Part shown: piece after piece, positions 1 through 11,752 of the stretch
Position numbering within the stretch: position 1 is the stretch's first letter
Layout of the letters: each line of letters starts with the position of its first letter
Source of the DNA: a bacterium
GTDB lineage: Bacteria > Sysuimicrobiota > Sysuimicrobiia > Sysuimicrobiales > Kaftiobacteriaceae
Length of the DNA: 64,000 bases
NCBI GenBank assembly: GCA_035292085.1
Contig: DATDQT010000152.1
Span: 17,828 to 81,827 of the forward strand
Direction of reading: 5' to 3'
Made by a program: the position numbers and the translations under genes
Notes under the pieces: model-generated
Told to the model about the DNA's origin: nothing
Database searches by the model: none
What the model saw: the letters and a program-made list of their open reading frames with translations, nothing else

Positions 1-1119
1 GACCTCGTCCAGCACCGACAAGTCCATCGTTTGCGGCAGGAAGTCCTCGCCGATCCCTTCCACCTTGTACGCGTGCGCCTCGGGCATCCGGCCGGTCTTC
101 ACGTACTCGTAGTACACCGACCCAATCGGATCCGCGCCGATGACGCGCAGGCCAGGATTGCGTTCCTTCAGGTACCGCCCCGCGCCGGAGATCGTGCCGC
201 CGGTCCCCATCCCGGCGACGAGGACGTCGACCCGGCCGCCGGTCTGGGCCCAGATCTCGGGCCCGGTGGTCTCGTAGTGGGCCCGCGGGTTCGCCTCATT
301 CGCGTACTGGTTGGCGTAGAAACTGTTGGGCGTCTCCTGCGCGATGCGTCGGCTCACGCTGTAGTACGATCGCGGGTCCTCCGGCGCGACCGCGGTCGGC
401 GTGATGACCACGCGCGCCCCGAACGCGCGCAGCAGCCGGATCTTCTCGTCCGACATCTTGTCGGGCATGACGAAAATGGTATGGTACCCGCGGATCGCCG
501 CGGCGATGGCCAATCCCACGCCCGTGTTGCCCGACGTCGCCTCGACGATGGTGCCGCTCGGTCGCAGGAGGCCGGCACGCTCGGCGTCTTCGATCATCGT
601 GACGCCGATCCGGTCTTTCACCGAGCCGCCGGGGTTGAGGAATTCCAGCTTGCCGACCACGTCGGCGCGAACGCCGCGCGCCACGCGGCCCAGGCGGACC
701 ATCGGCGTGTTGCCGATGACGTCGACGATACTGTCGAAGATCTGGTCGCCACGCCGGGCTTCGGGCTTCGGGCTTCGGGCTCCGGTTTTGGTCCCAGTCG
801 GCTGTGCGATGCCCGAGGACCGAGGCCCGGGGCCCGTCAGTTCGTCCATGCCGCCCGCCATCGCGGGGATGATGGACACCTCGTCATCGTCGGCCAGCGG
901 GGTGTCGAGTCCGGCCAGCTGGCGGATCTCGGTCCCGTTGACGAAGGTGTTGATGTAACTGCGCACCGCTCCCCGCTCGTCGCACACCTCCGCCTTGATG
1001 CCGGGGAACCGGCCCTCCAGCCCGTCGAGGAGCTCCCGGACTGAGCGCGCCGGTACGTCCGCCCGGCCCTGCCCGTCCGTCCACCGACGCAGCGGACTCG
1101 GAATGTAGACGCTCACCAT
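1..1119 (-). CDS. CysO/ThiS/MoaD-like sulfur-carrier domain fused in frame to a cysteine synthase / cystathionine beta-synthase-family PLP enzyme (3' end beyond the window)
   Basis: Manual minus-strand translation from ATG 1119-1117. It is absent from the ORF track because no stop lies inside the window. Residues 1-90 are MVSVYIPSPLRRWTDGQ...DDDEVSIIPAMAGG, with the GG codons at 850-855. A ~36-aa Pro/Gly/Lys-rich linker follows, then GNTPMVRL...LEFLNPGGSVKDR...EATSGNTGVGLA...YKVEGIGEDF. ATGA start/stop overlap with the upstream gene. Confidence 0.8.
   Translation of the reverse strand, partial: MVSVYIPSPLRRWTDGQGRADVPARSVRELLDGLEGRFPGIKAEVCDERGAVRSYINTFVNGTEIRQLAGLDTPLADDDEVSIIPAMAGGMDELTGPGPRSSGIAQPTGTKTGARSPKPEARRGDQIFDSIVDVIGNTPMVRLGRVARGVRADVVGKLEFLNPGGSVKDRIGVTMIEDAERAGLLRPSGTIVEATSGNTGVGLAIAAAIRGYHTIFVMPDKMSDEKIRLLRAFGARVVITPTAVAPEDPRSYYSVSRRIAQETPNSFYANQYANEANPRAHYETTGPEIWAQTGGRVDVLVAGMGTGGTISGAGRYLKERNPGLRVIGADPIGSVYYEYVKTGRMPEAHAYKVEGIGEDFLPQTMDLSVLDEV
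755..785. repeat. Tandem heptamer repeat (CGGGCTT x3 plus one imperfect copy) inside the CysO-CBS linker coding region
   Basis: Read directly; encodes ...GARSPKPEARRG... on the minus strand. Confidence 0.8.
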
Positions 1120-2267
1120 CACTCCGCCTTTCCCAGCGCCTGTGCCAGATCACCGATCAGATCCTCCACGTGCTCGATCCCGACCGACAGGCGCAGGAGG
1201 CCGGGATCGACCTGGAGCGGCGAACCCGTCAGTGTGGCGTGGGTCATCGACGCCGGATGATCGACCAGCGATTCCACTCCGCCCAGACTCTCGGCAAGGG
1301 TGAAGACCCGCAGGCCCGCGGCCACGCGGCGGGCCGCGGGGTCGCCTCCGTGCAGCGTGAACGAGACCATTCCGCCGAATCCCGCCATCTGACGCGCGGC
1401 GAGCGCATGTCCGGGATGATCGGGCAGCCCGGGATAGAACACGCCCTGGACGGCGGCGTGCCCCCGCAGGGATTCGGCGACGCGCTGAGCATTCGCGCAG
1501 TGCCGGTCCATTCGCAGCGCCAGCGTCCGGATGCCGCGGAGGACCAGCCAGCAGTCAAACGGCCCCGGGACGGCTCCGGCCGCATTCTGGTGAAACTTCA
1601 GGGTCTCGTAGACGTCCCGGCTGCTCGTCACGACCGCGCCCCCGACCACGTCGCTGTGCCCGCCGAGGTACTTCGTCGTGGAATGCACGACCATATCGGC
1701 CCCCAGCCCCAGCGGGCGCTGGAGGTAGGGTGTGGCGAACGTGTTGTCCACGACGACCAGGGCGTCGCGACTGTGGGCCAACTCGGCGACGGCGGCGATG
1801 TCGAGGATTTTCAGGTACGGATTGGTCGGCGTTTCCACCAGCACCAGGCGCGTCTTCGCGGTCAGTGCCGCCTCGACACACGTGAGGTCGGTCATATCGA
1901 CGAAACTCACCTCGAGTCCGTACCGGCGCAGCACCTGCACGAACAGCCGGTGCGTCCCCCCATAGACATCGTCGGGCGCCACGACGTGCTCGCCGGGGCT
2001 GAGCAGGTACGCGGTGGTCGCGATCGCGGCCATCCCCGACGCAAACGCCAGGCCAAACTGGCCATCCTCCAGCGAGGCGAGGCAGGTTTCCAGCGCGGCG
2101 CGGGTGGGGTTCGCGGTGCGGGAGTAGTCGTACCCTTTGTGGACCTCGGGCGCGTCCTGGGCGTAGGTGGCCGTCTGGTAGATCGGAGGAATCACGGCGC
2201 CGGTGGCGGGATCGGGCGCCTGTCCGTCGTGAATCGCGCGTGTTTCGAAGCGCCGCCGTGATGGCAT
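1119..2267 (-). CDS. Cystathionine gamma-synthase/gamma-lyase family PLP enzyme (trans-sulfuration)
   Basis: 382-aa ORF. N-terminus FETRAIHDGQ...IYQTATY and the PLP-lysine motif HSTTKYLGGHSD are typical of the Cys/Met metabolism PLP family. Confidence 0.85.
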   Translation of the reverse strand: MPSRRRFETRAIHDGQAPDPATGAVIPPIYQTATYAQDAPEVHKGYDYSRTANPTRAALETCLASLEDGQFGLAFASGMAAIATTAYLLSPGEHVVAPDDVYGGTHRLFVQVLRRYGLEVSFVDMTDLTCVEAALTAKTRLVLVETPTNPYLKILDIAAVAELAHSRDALVVVDNTFATPYLQRPLGLGADMVVHSTTKYLGGHSDVVGGAVVTSSRDVYETLKFHQNAAGAVPGPFDCWLVLRGIRTLALRMDRHCANAQRVAESLRGHAAVQGVFYPGLPDHPGHALAARQMAGFGGMVSFTLHGGDPAARRVAAGLRVFTLAESLGGVESLVDHPASMTHATLTGSPLQVDPGLLRLSVGIEHVEDLIGDLAQALGKAE

Positions 2268-2271
2268 GGAC

Positions 2272-2976
2272 CTACGCGGGCGCAGGAACGGAGTCGCTTT
2301 CGGCCGCCCCCACGAGCGCCGATCGGGTCACCGGGATGAGATCCAGCGCGTAGACCTCGGCGAACCTCGCCGCGGTGCGGGCACGGACGTTCGCGAGGGG
2401 CACCGGCCGACCGAGGACCATGGCCATCGACGTCACCTCGCGCCCCAACCCGCAGGGATTGATGAATGAGAAGTGCGCCAGATCGGGCGCCACGTTGAGC
2501 GCGAATCCGTGCATGGTCACGCGGCGTTTCACCGCGACGCCGACGGCGGCGATCTTCATGCCGTCGACCCAGACGCCCGGATAGCCGGGTTGCCGGGCAG
2601 CCTGGAGGCCAAAGTCATCAAGGACGTTGATCAGCGTGTGCTCCAAGGAGCGCATGAACTTGCCGATGTCTTCGTTGTACGATCGCAGATCGAGAATCGG
2701 ATAGCCCACCAGTTGTCCGGGACCGTGGTAGGTGACGCTCCCGCCCCGCTCGATGTCGTACACGCCGAGTCCCTGAGCTGCCAGAGATTCGCGGGAGAAC
2801 AGCAGGTGCTCCGATTTCGATGAACGCCCGACGGTGATGACGGGCTCGTGCTCCAGGAGGATCAGTCCATCGCCAACGCGGTTGTGCTGGCGGGCGGCGA
2901 CGAGCGTGCGCTGGAGTGCCCAGGCATCGGCGTAGGGGGTAATGCCGGTGAGATCCAGCAGCCATCCGGACCGCAT
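2272..2976 (-). CDS. lipB: Octanoyltransferase (lipoyl(octanoyl) transferase)
   Basis: 234 aa; LLEHEPVITVGR...GGSVTYHGPGQLVGYPIL...KIAAVGV...HGFALNV pattern of LipB. Its stop lies 4 nt from the next start. Confidence 0.85.
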   Translation of the reverse strand: MRSGWLLDLTGITPYADAWALQRTLVAARQHNRVGDGLILLEHEPVITVGRSSKSEHLLFSRESLAAQGLGVYDIERGGSVTYHGPGQLVGYPILDLRSYNEDIGKFMRSLEHTLINVLDDFGLQAARQPGYPGVWVDGMKIAAVGVAVKRRVTMHGFALNVAPDLAHFSFINPCGLGREVTSMAMVLGRPVPLANVRARTAARFAEVYALDLIPVTRSALVGAAESDSVPAPA

Positions 2977-3003: not shown

Positions 3004-4113
3004 CTAGGACGCGGGGGTGACCTCTGGAACCTCAACCACGGGGCATTCGACCGGCGCGGCCACGACGGCCTCGCCGTCGGGAAAGCACACCAGCGGGTGC
3101 CCTGGATCGATCGAAACCGCCACACGCATGCCCGGTTGGAATGGTGCCGTGTGGTCGGCGCTGCTGTGAATCACCCGTCCGGATGGAAGCTGCACGCGGT
3201 ACAGCAGGTGCGTCCCTCTGAACTGGCGGGCGACGATGACCCCGGTATCCCCGCGGGAGCCGATCGTCACATCGTCCGCCCGCACCAGGAGATCGACCGT
3301 ACTGCCCGCCGGCAGCGGCGCGAGCAGAGGCACCAGTCCGACCTCGGTGAGCAGGCCGTCGGCGGTAACCGTCGCCGGAACAAAATCCGCGCGTCCCAGA
3401 AACGACGCGATAAACCGCGTGCGCGGCATCTGGAAAATGTGCTCTGGGGCATCGACCTGCTCGATCCGCCCGGCGTGCATAACTGCGACCTCGTCCCCCA
3501 TGAACAGCGCCTCGTCCTGATCATGGGTCACAAATACCGCAGTGGTGCGCGTGCGCCGGAGGATCTCGCGCATCTCCTCGCGCAGTTGCTGGCGCAGGTC
3601 AGCATCCAGGTTGCTGAAGGGTTCGTCCAGCAGCACGACCAGCGGCTGCCGGGCCAACGCCCGGGCGAGGGCCACCCGCTGCTGCTGGCCGCCGGACATC
3701 TCATGGGGCATCCGTGACTCCAGACCCGCGAGTCCGACCAGTACCAGCAAGTCGTGCACACGGCCGGCACGATCCGGACTGTGCGGCGGCAGCCCGTAGG
3801 CGATGTTCTCGGCGACCGAGAGATGCGGGAACAGCGCGAAGTCCTGAAACACCATCCCAATCTGGCGGCGCTCGGGCGGCACGTAGCTGCGCTCCCGGGC
3901 CACGACGCGGCCGCCGATCTCGATGGTGCCGCGGTCCGCAATCTCCAAACCCGCGATTATCCGCAGTACCGTCGTCTTCCCGCAGCCCGACGGACCCAGC
4001 AGCGAGGTGATCTTTCCCGCTCGCACCGACAGATGGAGGTCGCACACGACGGTGGTGGCATCGTAGGACTTCCACAGGCCGCGACACTGGATGGCGTACT
4101 CCACGTGCGTCAT
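3004..4113 (-). CDS. ABC transporter ATP-binding protein, Fe(III)/polyamine-importer type
   Basis: Walker A GPSGCGKTT, signature MSGGQQQRVALARAL, Walker B LLDEPFSNLD, and a C-terminal TOBE-like extension. Confidence 0.85.
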   Translation of the reverse strand: MTHVEYAIQCRGLWKSYDATTVVCDLHLSVRAGKITSLLGPSGCGKTTVLRIIAGLEIADRGTIEIGGRVVARERSYVPPERRQIGMVFQDFALFPHLSVAENIAYGLPPHSPDRAGRVHDLLVLVGLAGLESRMPHEMSGGQQQRVALARALARQPLVVLLDEPFSNLDADLRQQLREEMREILRRTRTTAVFVTHDQDEALFMGDEVAVMHAGRIEQVDAPEHIFQMPRTRFIASFLGRADFVPATVTADGLLTEVGLVPLLAPLPAGSTVDLLVRADDVTIGSRGDTGVIVARQFRGTHLLYRVQLPSGRVIHSSADHTAPFQPGMRVAVSIDPGHPLVCFPDGEAVVAAPVECPVVEVPEVTPAS

Positions 4114-5714
4114 ACGTCAAATCCCCGGCGTTCCTGCGACAGCAGCAGCGCCATCGACAGTGATGAGATCAGCAGCAACAGCAGCGCCGGCGGCGCCGCG
4201 CGGGTGAAAAACCCCTCCGTGGCCGCCGACCAGATGCGCGTCGCCAGTGTCTCAAATCCCGTTGGACTCAGCAACAACGTGGCCGGCAGCTCCTTCATCG
4301 TCGTCAGGAATACCAGCGCCGCCGCCGCGACGGCGCCGGGACGGACCAGCGGAACCGTGACCGTGAGCAGGGCCTGCCGGCTCGTCCGACCCAGCACACG
4401 CGCGGACTCTTCTTGCGAGGGACTGATCTGCTGCAGCGCCGACCGCAGCGTGCCAACGGCTTGGGGAAGAAACAGCACGAGGTAGGCAAACACGAGCACA
4501 GGCATTGTCTGGTAGAGCCACGGCACGGTGCGCGCGGCGAAGAAGACCAGCGACAAGGCGACGACAATCCCCGGCAGCGCGTAGCCGGCATAGGCCAGGC
4601 GCGTGATGAGAGTGGCCAGGGTTCCCCGGTGGCGGATGGCGAGCATCGCGATCGGCATTCCGGCTAACACCGCCGCCCCGGCGCTCAGCGCCGACGCGTA
4701 GACGGAATTCAGCGCCGGTCGCAGCGTGAGGATGAGCGGCTGGCCGTGCCGGAGCCCGACGACGAGCCAGTACAGCACGACCCCCGCCGGCAGCAGTACC
4801 CCGAGGGCGACGACCGTACCGCAGAACAGCAGCGCGGGCCACCGCCACCGGCCTAGCCGGACCAACCGCGGGCGGCGGGCGGCGGCCGCACCGATCCGAT
4901 AGTAGCGCGCGCGCTGGCTGCGCCCTTCGACCGACAAGACGATCACCGTCAGGGCGACGAGCACCAGCGACAGCACCGCGGCATAACTCCGATTGAACGA
5001 CGCCTGGTACTGCGTGTAGATCGCAGTGGTGAACGACTCGAACTGCATCATCGAGACCGCGCCGAAGTCGCTGAGGACGTAGAGCGCCACGAGCAGCGCG
5101 CCCGCACCGATCCAGGGGCGCAGCATCGGCATCGAAATCCGTCTGATCGTCTCGGCGGTCCCGTGGCCGAGGCTCCGCGACGCTTCCTCGAGCGCCGGAT
5201 CGATCCCCCGCAGACCGGCGCGGATGCTCAGCAGCACGTACGGATAGGTGAACAGGCTCAAGGTCAACCACGACCCGGGAAAGCCGTAGACCGCCGGCAG
5301 CCGCGTGATGCCCACAAGCGGTTCGAGCGCCTGCTGCAGCATGCCCGTCGGGCCGAACGCCGTGACCACGACGAACCCGCCGACGTAGGAGGGCACGACC
5401 AGGGGAAGGGCGGTGAGCACGCTCCACAGACGCGAGGCAGGCAGATCCGTGCGGACCGTCAGCCACGCCAGCGGCAGGGCGAGGGCAATCGTGGTCGCCG
5501 TCACCGCGGCGGCAAGGAGCAGCGTGTTGAACAGGATGCGTCCGGTACGCGGGCTGAGCAGGAGACTCCACCCTTCGTCCCCGGCCCCCGCAGCCCGCAC
5601 GATTAGATACGCAATAGGGAGCAGCATCGCGGCGGCCACCAGCACCGACGGGATCCAGACCTGCGCGCCGGCGCCAAGCCGGCGCTGTCGAGCGGGCAGC
5701 ACGACGTCAAGCAT
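4110..5714 (-). CDS. Iron(III)-type ABC transporter permease (duplicated two-module permease)
   Basis: Long polytopic hydrophobic ORF. Start trimmed to ATG 5714, 1 nt after the stop of the upstream binding-protein gene. Overlaps the ATPase start by 4 nt. Confidence 0.8.
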   Translation of the reverse strand: MLDVVLPARQRRLGAGAQVWIPSVLVAAAMLLPIAYLIVRAAGAGDEGWSLLLSPRTGRILFNTLLLAAAVTATTIALALPLAWLTVRTDLPASRLWSVLTALPLVVPSYVGGFVVVTAFGPTGMLQQALEPLVGITRLPAVYGFPGSWLTLSLFTYPYVLLSIRAGLRGIDPALEEASRSLGHGTAETIRRISMPMLRPWIGAGALLVALYVLSDFGAVSMMQFESFTTAIYTQYQASFNRSYAAVLSLVLVALTVIVLSVEGRSQRARYYRIGAAAARRPRLVRLGRWRWPALLFCGTVVALGVLLPAGVVLYWLVVGLRHGQPLILTLRPALNSVYASALSAGAAVLAGMPIAMLAIRHRGTLATLITRLAYAGYALPGIVVALSLVFFAARTVPWLYQTMPVLVFAYLVLFLPQAVGTLRSALQQISPSQEESARVLGRTSRQALLTVTVPLVRPGAVAAAALVFLTTMKELPATLLLSPTGFETLATRIWSAATEGFFTRAAPPALLLLLISSLSMALLLSQERRGFDV

Positions 5715-5715
5715 G

Positions 5716-6723
5716 CTAGAGTATGCCGGCCTCCCGGAGCACCCGCAGTGTCTCCTCAAGGGCCTGGAGGTGGTTCAGATCGACGGCGGGAGTGCGGATC
5801 TGGCCGAGCGGCGGGAGCAGTGGGTGCGCCGCCACCCCCACGACCAACGGATATTCGAAGGTCTCGTTGGCAAAGTAGCGCTGCGCGTCGGCGGACAGGA
5901 GAAACTCCACCAGCCGCGTGGCCGCGGCGATGTTCCGGCTGGTCGTCACGACGCCGGCGCCGGCGACGTTGATCAGATTTCCGACGTCCGGCCCCGGGAA
6001 GAAGTAGTTCCGCGCGGGGAACGACGTGCCGCGCTCGCGGAGGAACTGAAAGAGGTAGTAGTGATTCACGAAGCCAACGTCGATCTCTCCGGCGCCCACG
6101 GCCGCGACGATCGCGGTGTTGTTGCGGTAGACGCGGGGGGCGTTGGCTTTGATGCCGAGCAGCCACCGGCGGGTCCGCTCGTTGCCCCACAGCAGGCGCA
6201 TCGCGGTGACCTGGGCCTGAAAAGACCCGTTGGTCGGCGCCCACCCGATGCGGCCCCGCCACCTCGGGGTGGTGAAGTCTGCGATCGACGCCGGGAGGTC
6301 CCGGGTGGTAAGGTTCCGGGTATTGTAGACGACTACCCTGGCCCGGCCGCTGATCCCGACCCACAACCCGTCGCCTGACCGGAACCGCGGCTCAACCCGC
6401 TGTAGGATGGCATCGGGGAGCCGCCGCAGATGGCCGCCGAATGCCAGCGCTCCGAGCGCGCCTGCATCCTGCGCCACGTACACGTCGGCCGGACTGTTCG
6501 CGCCCTCTTCCATGATGGTGGCTGCCAGTTCCGCGGTTTCGCCGTACCGCGCCCGGACGGCGATGCCGGTCGCTTTGGTGAACTGTTCGAGGATCGGCGC
6601 CACCAATTCGCGGGTCCGGCCCGAATAGACGGTCAGTGAGACCCCTTGTGCCGATGCCGGAGCCAGGATGCCGGCGACGAGGACCGCGATCAGGATGGAG
6701 GCGAGGGTGACCGATCGCTTCAT
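5716..6723 (-). CDS. Fe(III) ABC transporter substrate-binding protein (FbpA/AfuA-like) with signal peptide
   Basis: MKRSVTLASILIAVLVAGILAPASAQG signal peptide. Start chosen at ATG 6723, 8 nt after AGGAGGG. The track ORF extends to 6783. Confidence 0.8.
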   Translation of the reverse strand: MKRSVTLASILIAVLVAGILAPASAQGVSLTVYSGRTRELVAPILEQFTKATGIAVRARYGETAELAATIMEEGANSPADVYVAQDAGALGALAFGGHLRRLPDAILQRVEPRFRSGDGLWVGISGRARVVVYNTRNLTTRDLPASIADFTTPRWRGRIGWAPTNGSFQAQVTAMRLLWGNERTRRWLLGIKANAPRVYRNNTAIVAAVGAGEIDVGFVNHYYLFQFLRERGTSFPARNYFFPGPDVGNLINVAGAGVVTTSRNIAAATRLVEFLLSADAQRYFANETFEYPLVVGVAAHPLLPPLGQIRTPAVDLNHLQALEETLRVLREAGIL

Positions 6724-6838
6724 TCCCATTCCCTCCTGCATGCGGACTCTGCTATGCTGATTCTTGACCTCTACACAGAACAATTAGATTCTAGGAGCGC
6801 GGAAGAAGGTTGCCCCAACAATCGTTGTTGCCAGCGAC

Positions 6839-10540: not shown

Positions 10541-11752
10541 TCATCGCGGCTCCTCAAAAGGCCACCGCGGCAGCGTGACGCGGGTCGGGCGATCCTCGCG
10601 GGACCCCAGGGCATAGTCGGCCTGCAGCAGCGTGTGAATCTCGCGCGTCCCCTCGTAGATCACGCCGCCTTTCGCGTTGCGGTAGAACCGTTCCACGGGG
10701 TACTCATCCGAATACCCGTAGGCCCCGTAGATCTCGACGGCATCGCCGGCGGCCCGCTCCGACGCGGTGGTCGCATACCACTTCGCCAGCGAGGTTTCCC
10801 GGGTATTGCGGAGCCCCTGGTTCTTCATCCAGCCGGCGCGCAGGTACAGCAGCCGGCTGACCTCGTAGTCGCGGGTCATGCCCGCGATCATCTCCTTCAC
10901 GAGTTGGTGCTCGCCGATCGGCCGGCCGAATGTCCGCCGCTCGGCCGCGTAGCGCACGCTCGCATCCAGGCACGCCCGGATGAGCCCCGTCGCTCCCGCG
11001 GCGACGGTGAACCGCCCCTGGTCAAGCGCAAACATCGCGAGGCGGAAACCCTCGCCGTCCTCGCCCAGCCGGTGGCTGGCCGGGACCCGGACCTCCTCCA
11101 TGACGATGGACCCGGTGTTGCCCGCGCGGATGCCCAACTTGCCGTGGATGGTCGAGGTCGACACGCCCCGCATCTCGCGCGTGATGAGGAATGCGCTCAG
11201 ACCGGAGTGATCGCGGCGCCGCTGCTTCTCACGGTCGGTCCACGCGAACACGAGAAAGTGATCGGCCACATCGGCCAGCGACATCCAGGTCTTCTCGCCG
11301 TTGAGGATGTAGTGGGAACCGTCGCGGACGGCGGTCGCCTGAATGCCGACCGCATCGCTGCCGGCGGCCGGCTCGGTCAGCCCGTAGGCCGCGATGCGCT
11401 CGCCCCTGGCCTGCGGGGTCAGGAATTCGCGCCGCTGGGCCTCGGTGCCCCAGGCGAGGACGGACAGGCTGTTCAGGCCCAGATGGACGGACAGGATCAC
11501 CCGCAGGGACGTGTCCACGTACTCGAGTTCCTCGCAGGCCAGACCCAGGCTCATGTAGTCGAGCCCGGCCCCCCCGTAGGACTCGGGCACGCTTAGCCCG
11601 AGAATGCCGAGTCCGGCCATCTTCGTGAGGATGGAGCGGTCGAACTGCTGGGCGCGGTCGAGTTCGCGGATCCGCGGGGCGACTTCAGTCTGCGCGAAAT
11701 CCCGCACCATCCGTGACGCCGCCACCTGATGGTCTGCCAAGGCGAAGTCCAT
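10541..11752 (-). CDS. Acyl-CoA dehydrogenase
   Basis: 403 aa; LGLxVPExYGGAG, GLTEPxAGSD, and a C-terminal YEGTxEIH-type motif (IYEGTREIHTL). Confidence 0.85.
   Translation of the reverse strand: MDFALADHQVAASRMVRDFAQTEVAPRIRELDRAQQFDRSILTKMAGLGILGLSVPESYGGAGLDYMSLGLACEELEYVDTSLRVILSVHLGLNSLSVLAWGTEAQRREFLTPQARGERIAAYGLTEPAAGSDAVGIQATAVRDGSHYILNGEKTWMSLADVADHFLVFAWTDREKQRRRDHSGLSAFLITREMRGVSTSTIHGKLGIRAGNTGSIVMEEVRVPASHRLGEDGEGFRLAMFALDQGRFTVAAGATGLIRACLDASVRYAAERRTFGRPIGEHQLVKEMIAGMTRDYEVSRLLYLRAGWMKNQGLRNTRETSLAKWYATTASERAAGDAVEIYGAYGYSDEYPVERFYRNAKGGVIYEGTREIHTLLQADYALGSREDRPTRVTLPRWPFEEPR

Follow-up and report, generated by a model that had tools for sequence, protein, structure and literature searches.

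In Mycobacterium tuberculosis the sulfur carrier CysO is a free protein ending with Gly-Gly (GG), and it belongs to the CysO-CysM-Mec+-MoeZ pathway (Rv1334-1336, Rv3206c). Carriers of the QbsE/QbsD and HcyS/HcyD systems reportedly bear C-terminal extensions that are trimmed by JAMM peptidases, and in eukaryotes fusions of ubiquitin with ribosomal proteins, as well as polyubiquitin, are processed by deubiquitinases after GG. Operons combining ThiS/MoaD carriers with JAB, E1 and cysteine synthase genes were catalogued in 2006 (rows 4c and 4d in Iyer et al., PMC1779556); fusions reported there comprise ThiS-ThiG, MoaD-MoaE, ThiS-sulfite reductase and MoaD-AOR, and a fusion of ThiS with cystathionine beta-synthase (CBS) is not among them. 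MoaX of M. tuberculosis, which is a MoaD-MoaE fusion, is active only after cleavage past its GG (PMC4326299), the MoaD-MoaE fusion of Deinococcus radiodurans is cut by the JAMM peptidase DRJAMM (PMC8832034), and the carrier MetO is matured by Mec (preprint 10.1101/2024.10.14.618325). Here we describe a gene, in which a CysO-type carrier is joined in frame to CBS. It lies at the edge of a 64,000-nucleotide stretch of DNA from a bacterium of Sysuimicrobiota (family Kaftiobacteriaceae; assembly GCA_035292085.1, contig DATDQT010000152.1, positions 17,828 to 81,827 of the forward strand), which is hereafter called the window. Full-text search of the literature yielded no description of a CysO-CBS fusion, nor of a serine kinase or O-phosphoserine supply within a CysO operon.

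The reading frame in question runs on the minus strand from 1119 to 1 and, according to the translation of window positions 1-1119, contains 373 codons without a stop. Its first 90 amino acids were recognized by the Pfam model of ThiS (PF02597, E 1.3e-11, 45.4 bits at a cutoff of 22.5), the end of which coincides with Gly89-Gly90, and their nearest NCBIfam models were SAMP1 and archaeal MoaD, the former scoring 56 bits, i.e. just under its equivalog cutoff of 60. Among solved structures the best matches were provided by two experimentally studied CysO proteins, from Amycolatopsis (4n6e_B, E 2.2e-13, 37.5% identity) and from M. tuberculosis (3dwg_C, E 2.4e-11, 36% identity), both aligned end-to-end with GG placed on GG. 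Thus, the resemblance to CysO, which the first-pass annotation had pointed out, was confirmed by the search in PDB. The same annotation had noticed that the frame passes through GG without a stop, and this observation was borne out by both translation and alignment. While the solved CysO proteins stop exactly at GG, here Met91 comes next, and GG is followed by at least 283 residues within the window and by 491 residues in a nearly identical contig designated L089 (L and P numbers denote hereafter the compared loci and proteins). The GG carboxylate is, therefore, not the free C-terminus of the translated protein, and the free GG end that characterizes a carrier can be attained only after proteolysis. 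A separate start of CBS translation at Met91, right after GG, was also considered and turned out not to be general, since in 23 of 38 orthologues GG is followed by Ala.

The enzyme moiety is also readily recognizable. Its PALP domain matches PF00291 with E 3.8e-64, so that both profile searches proposed in the first-pass annotation, one for the carrier and one for the enzyme, ended with a hit. The top NCBIfam match of the window fragment is TIGR01137 (362.8 at a cutoff of 510.25), which stays below the cutoff only because the fragment is truncated; the full-length protein P0001, which is 99% identical, scores 526.7, and P0017 scores 513.4. The complete protein (P0001/L089) consists of 581 amino acids, carries a C-terminal CBS-pair (Bateman) module (PF00571) and finds its best PDB match in Cbs of M. 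tuberculosis (Rv1077, E 1.6e-114, residues 128-581 against 5-464). At the same time it fails the models of CysM (TIGR01138, 216-281 bits at a cutoff of 394) and CysK. The segment G164-G165-S166-V167-K168-D169-R170 containing the SxKDR motif is invariant in the alignment of orthologues, and K168 is presumably the lysine that forms the Schiff base with pyridoxal phosphate (PLP). These matches identify the enzyme moiety as a cystathionine beta-synthase proper and not as a CysM-type synthase using a carrier. The initial assignment to a “cysteine-synthase/CBS family” stands, therefore, as far as a PALP enzyme passing the CBS equivalog is concerned, and does not extend to a synthase of CysM type. 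Databases label the fused proteins simply “cystathionine beta-synthase”.

Contig L089 (ENA ERZ27254843) coincides with window positions 1-1950 at 99.8% identity with zero gaps, having the same junction and the same number of repeats in the linker between the two domains, and it extends 1107 nt beyond window position 1, completing the 581-residue protein and exposing the start of the next gene. The architecture composed of ThiS, PALP and CBS-pair was found in 45 protein clusters, 65-99% identical, from four sources (ENA, NCBI, JGI and Logan), and single clusters comprise as many as 68 sequences. The motif IIPAMAGG is kept in 44 of these clusters, and the mean pairwise identity within 38 full-length fused proteins amounts to 0.65 for the carrier, 0.82 for PALP and 0.70 for the Bateman module. 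Linkers of the same 45 clusters range from 2 to 37 amino acids (median 9), contain much Ala, Arg and Pro and defy alignment. Taken together these data indicate that the carrier domain is under selection and the linker is not. The conserved in-frame gene encoding carrier and CBS is a real fusion, which is maintained by purifying selection and belongs to a cluster of genes for cysteine biosynthesis.

Besides the window and L089, the fused state was registered in L004, L090 and L001, the proteins of which are 86%, 80% and 65% identical to that of the window, respectively. Comparison of orthologous loci, which had been suggested from the outset, also revealed relatives with separate carrier and enzyme (L005, L006, L010, L011 and L012). 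In all five of them the carrier open reading frame (ORF) overlaps the start of CBS in another frame and continues past GG by a tail of 8-12 amino acids terminated by a stop codon, namely GG-LFTMEMSAWPEE in L005 and L006, which are two assemblies, GG-LVALGTAGR in L010, GG-EPPVWSRE in L011 and GG-RAARGPGR in L012. A canonical carrier with the stop right after GG belongs to a distant homologue from Anaerolineales (L026). In a neighbour-joining tree of the CBS core fused and unfused proteins are interleaved. Unfused CBS proteins of this clade begin with a basic extension (MARKTKS...) similar to the linkers of the fused ones, which fits a simple fusion of adjacent genes.

The same tendency was observed for carriers that are not fused to any enzyme. 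Among the 120 closest standalone homologues of the carrier domain (P0121-P0240, 52-80% identical) IIPAMAGG is present in 118, and none of these 118 ends at GG: the tail consists of one residue in 37 of them, of two residues in 20 and of 4-57 residues in the other 61. Thus, GG is never the primary C-terminus in this subfamily, which makes C-terminal trimming obligatory with or without CBS, and the fusion with CBS is the long end of a continuum of tail lengths. Where trimming is needed in any case, the disappearance of a stop codon between adjacent cysO and cbs would be tolerated, and we infer from the compared sequences that this loss has probably occurred and reverted repeatedly. Two other features of the tails were noticed. 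Some of those found in databases, for example that of P0137, resemble frameshifted linkers. Many tails and linkers start with (L/M/H)DE(D/L/P), as in LDEDNGG or in MDELTG of the window, which might serve for prime-side recognition or else reflect a constraint imposed by the overlapping downstream start.

Genes that could serve the carrier are located downstream of CBS in the relatives. The order there is LipB, gamma-lyase-family enzyme, CBS with or without the fused carrier, a protein of 264-286 amino acids, a CysM-like PALP enzyme, Prok-JAB, Rrf2 and ECF sigma/anti-sigma, and in closer relatives a thioredoxin-reductase-like gene and ThiF+rhodanese are found farther downstream. Fused L001, L004 and L090 and unfused L005 and L007 share this order. 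The 264-286-residue protein, CysM, JAB and Rrf2 follow CBS in L001, L004, L005 and L090. The first-pass annotation had reasoned that such a fusion may need a JAMM/Mec-type peptidase and a MoeZ-like E1, and both were found: the Prok-JAB gene lies 2-3 genes downstream in every relative with enough flanking DNA, and the ThiF+rhodanese E1 lies about 6 kb downstream in closer relatives L004, L005, L007 and L090. JAB proteins of L001, L004, L005 and L007 retain the conserved catalytic Glu and the intact HSHx(7-8)PSxxD motif, their closest solved relatives including JAMM1 of Pyrococcus (5ld9), while E1 proteins of the relatives have intact GxGGxG, two CxxC pairs and the rhodanese Cys loop. PALP proteins encoded separately downstream in the relatives come near the thresholds of TIGR01138 (348-358 at a cutoff of 394) and TIGR01136 (328-342 at a cutoff of 344), remaining below both. 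In L004 (2681-4123), L005 (10478-11923) and L090 (3244-4683) the CysM-like enzyme is fused C-terminally to JAB, giving a protein of 479-481 amino acids with HSHx8PSxxD, and in more distant L001, L007 and L091 CysM and JAB are encoded by separate adjacent genes.

The protein of 264-286 amino acids encoded between CBS and CysM (L089:2619-3056, L004:1778-2572, L090:2402-3238, L001:11698-12543) has no match in Pfam. It was recognized by the NCBIfam model of SbnI (E 5e-22) and by archaeal SerK (E 2e-7 to 3e-11), and in PDB by SbnI (5uje, E 5e-15). By similarity it is assigned to ParB-fold L-serine kinases, which make O-phosphoserine, and it shares 74% identity with the partial gene located after the fusion in L089. 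In L091 (6306-7166) the same protein is encoded directly after CysO, and CBS is absent. Moreover, the whole cassette of L091-L093 consists of CysO (with a GG-R end), SerK-like kinase, CysM, JAB and Rrf2 without CBS or gamma-lyase, and in L094 from Anaerolineae CysO (GG-RA) is accompanied by rhodanese/ThiF and CysM. These CBS-less cassettes tie the carrier to CysM, JAB and E1 rather than to CBS. They suggest that in the lineage of the window CBS came between cysO and the rest of the cassette, and that loss of the stop codon then fused them.

Thus, the cluster of the relatives holds genes for all components of a CysO/CysM/Mec+/MoeZ-type pathway and for a serine kinase in addition. Based on this set of genes, we consider it likely that the fused gene encodes a precursor polyprotein, the carrier of which is freed by JAB, converted to the thiocarboxylate by MoeZ and then serves CysM in a reaction with O-phosphoserine. 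Cleavage is predicted to take place after GG. The JAB/JAMM (Mec+-like) peptidase of the cluster would cut after Gly90, producing a 90-residue carrier, the GG carboxylate of which is free, as well as a normal CBS with a short basic N-terminal extension. The carrier would then be adenylated and thiocarboxylated by the MoeZ-like ThiF+rhodanese E1, and the separate CysM-type PLP enzyme would condense its thiocarboxylate with O-phosphoserine supplied by the SbnI/SerK-like serine kinase, after which the same JAB may hydrolyse the carrier-cysteine adduct, releasing cysteine. In parallel, CBS and the gamma-lyase-family enzyme would give cysteine via reverse transsulfuration. Fusion with CBS is probably a tolerated piggy-back.

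Such a route would resemble that of M. tuberculosis: the carrier is 36% identical to CysO over the full length with GG matched, and the clusters of the relatives encode a CysM-type PLP enzyme, JAB/JAMM and a ThiF+rhodanese E1. There are also differences: instead of being free, the carrier is fused to CBS or, in relatives, supplied with a tail before it; the CBS gene separates cysO from the other genes of the cassette; and there are a dedicated SbnI/SerK-like kinase, an Rrf2 regulator and a CysM that is sometimes fused to JAB. With MoaX and the Deinococcus MoaD-MoaE protein the gene shares an N-terminal ubiquitin-like (Ubl) domain of the ThiS/MoaD family joined via GG to a downstream enzyme, and the features of a Ubl-enzyme precursor found here are the N-terminal Ubl, the GG junction and, in relatives, a JAMM gene with intact motif. 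In those two proteins the carboxylate becomes exposed only by a cut after GG. However, MoaE is the catalytic partner of its carrier, whereas CBS represents a parallel route to cysteine, and cleavage is in our case predicted. As in QbsE, HcyS and MetO, GG is not the primary C-terminus, and JAB of the operon is expected both to mature the carrier and to release the product, but the extensions known so far comprise 1-2 residues, while here they range from one residue to the whole enzyme of about 490 amino acids. Ubiquitin precursors also have an N-terminal Ubl fused to an unrelated functional protein, and a cut after GG frees both. They serve protein tagging, however, and the analogy with bacterial sulfur-carrier chemistry holds for the logic and does not imply a common origin of the fusion.

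Several observations weigh against the precursor scheme. Genes for JAB, CysM, SerK-like kinase and MoeZ lie beyond window position 1 and are extrapolated from relatives, the fused proteins of which are 80-86% identical, and of these genes the source organism shows no more than the beginning of the SerK-like one, through 99.8%-identical L089. L007/L008 (6728-9428) possess the full cluster of gamma-lyase, CBS, SerK-like kinase, CysM, JAB, Rrf2 and MoeZ with no carrier gene nearby: CBS is preceded by a spacer of just 103 nt, which means that the carrier is encoded elsewhere or lost. Carriers can, therefore, be encoded apart from the cluster, and the source genome may contain a second one. In many orthologues the linker is as short as 2-3 residues, and the peptidase is assumed, from the example of linear ubiquitin fusions, to reach the GG|X bond. 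Finally, two loci of Anaerolineales, with the order Trx-CysK-CysE-ThiS(GG-stop)-CBS in L026 (7810-11722) and ThiF-UbiA-JAB-CBS in L013 (3047-6927), leave a direct relation between carrier and CBS possible.

A tentative and, in our estimation, unlikely alternative to the passive piggy-back is that the fusion serves as a control device. Uncleaved CysO-CBS would then be latent, and a cut by JAB would free the carrier and unmask CBS in the ratio 1:1, co-switching both routes; or else CBS would consume the carrier thiocarboxylate. In either case bacterial metabolism would have its own counterpart of ubiquitin-fusion precursors, and processing of the deubiquitinase kind would act as a regulatory step.

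It also seems rather improbable that the carrier, released or in cis, serves CBS itself, its thiocarboxylate acting as a nucleophile with serine or O-phosphoserine, so that the fusion reflects a true partnership of enzyme and substrate. Functional partners are often joined by gene fusion, CBS and CysM are homologous PLP enzymes of fold type II, and the gene neighbourhoods offer some support: in L026 ThiS is located directly upstream of CBS, JAB and CBS of L013 overlap by 4 nt, and in L056, L079 and L080 from Chloroflexota (about 11400-11600 / 3170) CBS is immediately followed by the SerK-like gene, and neither CysM nor JAB was detected in the stretch examined. Some CBS-type enzymes may, therefore, use O-phosphoserine or a carrier. 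To our knowledge, however, CBS is not known to use a carrier, and the fused enzyme passes the CBS equivalog with M. tuberculosis Cbs as its best match. Every cluster has a dedicated CysM, the same carrier subfamily occurs with SerK-like kinase, CysM and JAB without CBS (L091) or with E1 and CysM (L094), and fused and unfused states are freely interchanged. Since the fused enzyme is CBS, a separate CysM is encoded downstream and the CysO cassette exists without CBS, the fusion is probably not a carrier-enzyme partnership.

Equally one could imagine that the beta-grasp domain is never cleaved and remains a part of CBS for good, with a regulatory or docking function such as recruiting E1, JAB or CysM or sensing how the pathway is running. 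Enzymes with a Ubl domain that is not cleaved off are known, for instance Ubl-ThiF fusions (PMC1779556), and the many orthologues with linkers of only 2-3 residues would suit such a role. Nevertheless, we find this doubtful: preservation of GG in almost all fused clusters and standalone homologues, the unconstrained length of the linker and the existence of the same domain as a separate ORF in close relatives all speak against it, and no other carrier gene was seen in clusters holding CysM, JAB and E1.

The linker of the window contains two 7-nt tandem repeats (Table 1), and a change in copy number of the first of them had been proposed to uncouple the domains. The repeat does exist, its unit is not a multiple of three, and in simulation the gain or loss of one copy left CysO with a nonsense tail and destroyed the CBS frame, which together with the evolutionary toggling between fused and unfused states might suggest a slipped-strand phase-variation switch that turns CBS off and leaves a tailed carrier. 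A role of this kind is very improbable, as there are only about four copies, their number in 99.8%-identical L089 shows no difference, and the repeat is not conserved in orthologues, the linkers of which are wholly different. As for an assembly or sequencing indel or a pseudogene, the chance of which is practically negligible, two tandem repeats in high-GC linker DNA and frameshift-like database tails (P0137) might invite this explanation, but it is ruled out by the gapless alignment of L089 over 1950 nt including the junction and by 45 fused clusters from four data sources, each with up to 68 members, in which both domains are conserved at the amino-acid level.

The genes that precede the fusion in the direction of transcription are listed in Table 1 along with the elements of the fused gene itself. 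The gene of the gamma-synthase/gamma-lyase family occupies a syntenic position in L001, L005, L007, L010 and L012, and together with CBS it makes the usual reverse-transsulfuration pair. Its family had been identified correctly in the first-pass annotation, but the junction described there as ATGA is in fact TGATG, in which the stop codon (1121-1119) shares one base with the ATG of the carrier (1119-1117). LipB is found just upstream in all relatives (L001:8129-8860, L005:5840-6550, L007:6031-6723, L091:3114-3836), and this linkage persists in the lineage whose cassette has neither CBS nor gamma-lyase. LipB is preceded by co-directional genes of an ABC importer (periplasmic binding protein, permease and ATPase with TOBE domain; window positions 3004-6783, minus strand), syntenic with L001:3333-7761, where they adjoin genes of a FUR-family regulator and of a cysteine-desulfurase-like Aminotran_5 protein. 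Possibly the importer serves iron uptake and forms a module associated with the sulfur gene cluster. No homologues of E1, JAB, CysM or the serine kinase were detected within the 64-kb window, and no Rfam families, including riboswitches, were found in it.

Table 1. Elements of the fused gene and its upstream neighbours in the window
Feature	Position	Strand	Basis
CysO-type ThiS/MoaD beta-grasp sulfur-carrier domain, residues 1-90 (MVSVY...SIIPAMAGG)	850..1119	-	PF02597, SAMP1, CysO matches in PDB
Gly89-Gly90 codons without a stop after them, putative site of processing and activation	850..855	-	sequence; GG alignment to CysO
Linker of 36 amino acids, residues 91-126 (MDELTGPGPRSSGIAQPTGTKTGARSPKPEARRGDQ), hypervariable among orthologues	742..849	-	alignment and junction survey
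7-nt tandem repeat in the linker, GCCCGAA on the coding strand, 4.4 copies, 95% match	755..785	.	TRF
Second, weaker 7-nt tandem repeat in the linker, nearer to the GG codons, 4.3 copies, 82% match	807..836	.	TRF
Cystathionine beta-synthase catalytic (PALP) domain, N-terminal 247 residues, cut by the window edge	1..741	-	PF00291, TIGR01137
Cystathionine gamma-synthase/gamma-lyase family gene (Cys_Met_Meta_PP)	1119..2267	-	PF01053, E 1.2e-145; PRK07811, 571 bits (cutoff 513)
LipB-type octanoyltransferase, directly upstream of the cassette	2272..2976	-	PF21948, E 8.7e-48

Relatives that bear names are labelled Armatimonadota, “Armatimonadetes bacterium CSP1-3” or just “bacterium”. L011 (JAVKJW010000001.1), which has the tailed version of the carrier, belongs to Candidatus Thermofontivivens primus classified within Candidatus Sysuimicrobiota (formerly CSP1-3), and so the label “Armatimonadota” on many proteins from metagenome-assembled genomes (MAGs) may be outdated.

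The predicted processing of a carrier out of the CysO-CBS fusion introduces no new principle. It offers a clean case, open to testing, in which bacterial sulfur metabolism would handle a carrier in the manner of a ubiquitin precursor, and several accessory features that have not been described come along with it. If the precursor scheme is true, a whole lineage of CysO-type carriers, represented by MAGs labelled Armatimonadota, CSP1-3 and Candidatus Sysuimicrobiota and by relatives from Anaerolineae, would be made only as precursors, and the JAMM peptidase would be an obligatory maturase as well as a product-releasing hydrolase. The composition of the cluster suggests a self-contained route, absent from the searched literature, in which serine is converted by the SbnI/SerK-like kinase to O-phosphoserine and then, via the carrier thiocarboxylate, to cysteine. 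Annotation of the fused protein as “cystathionine beta-synthase” hides the carrier, and reconstruction of metabolic pathways in these bacteria would score the CysO step as missing.

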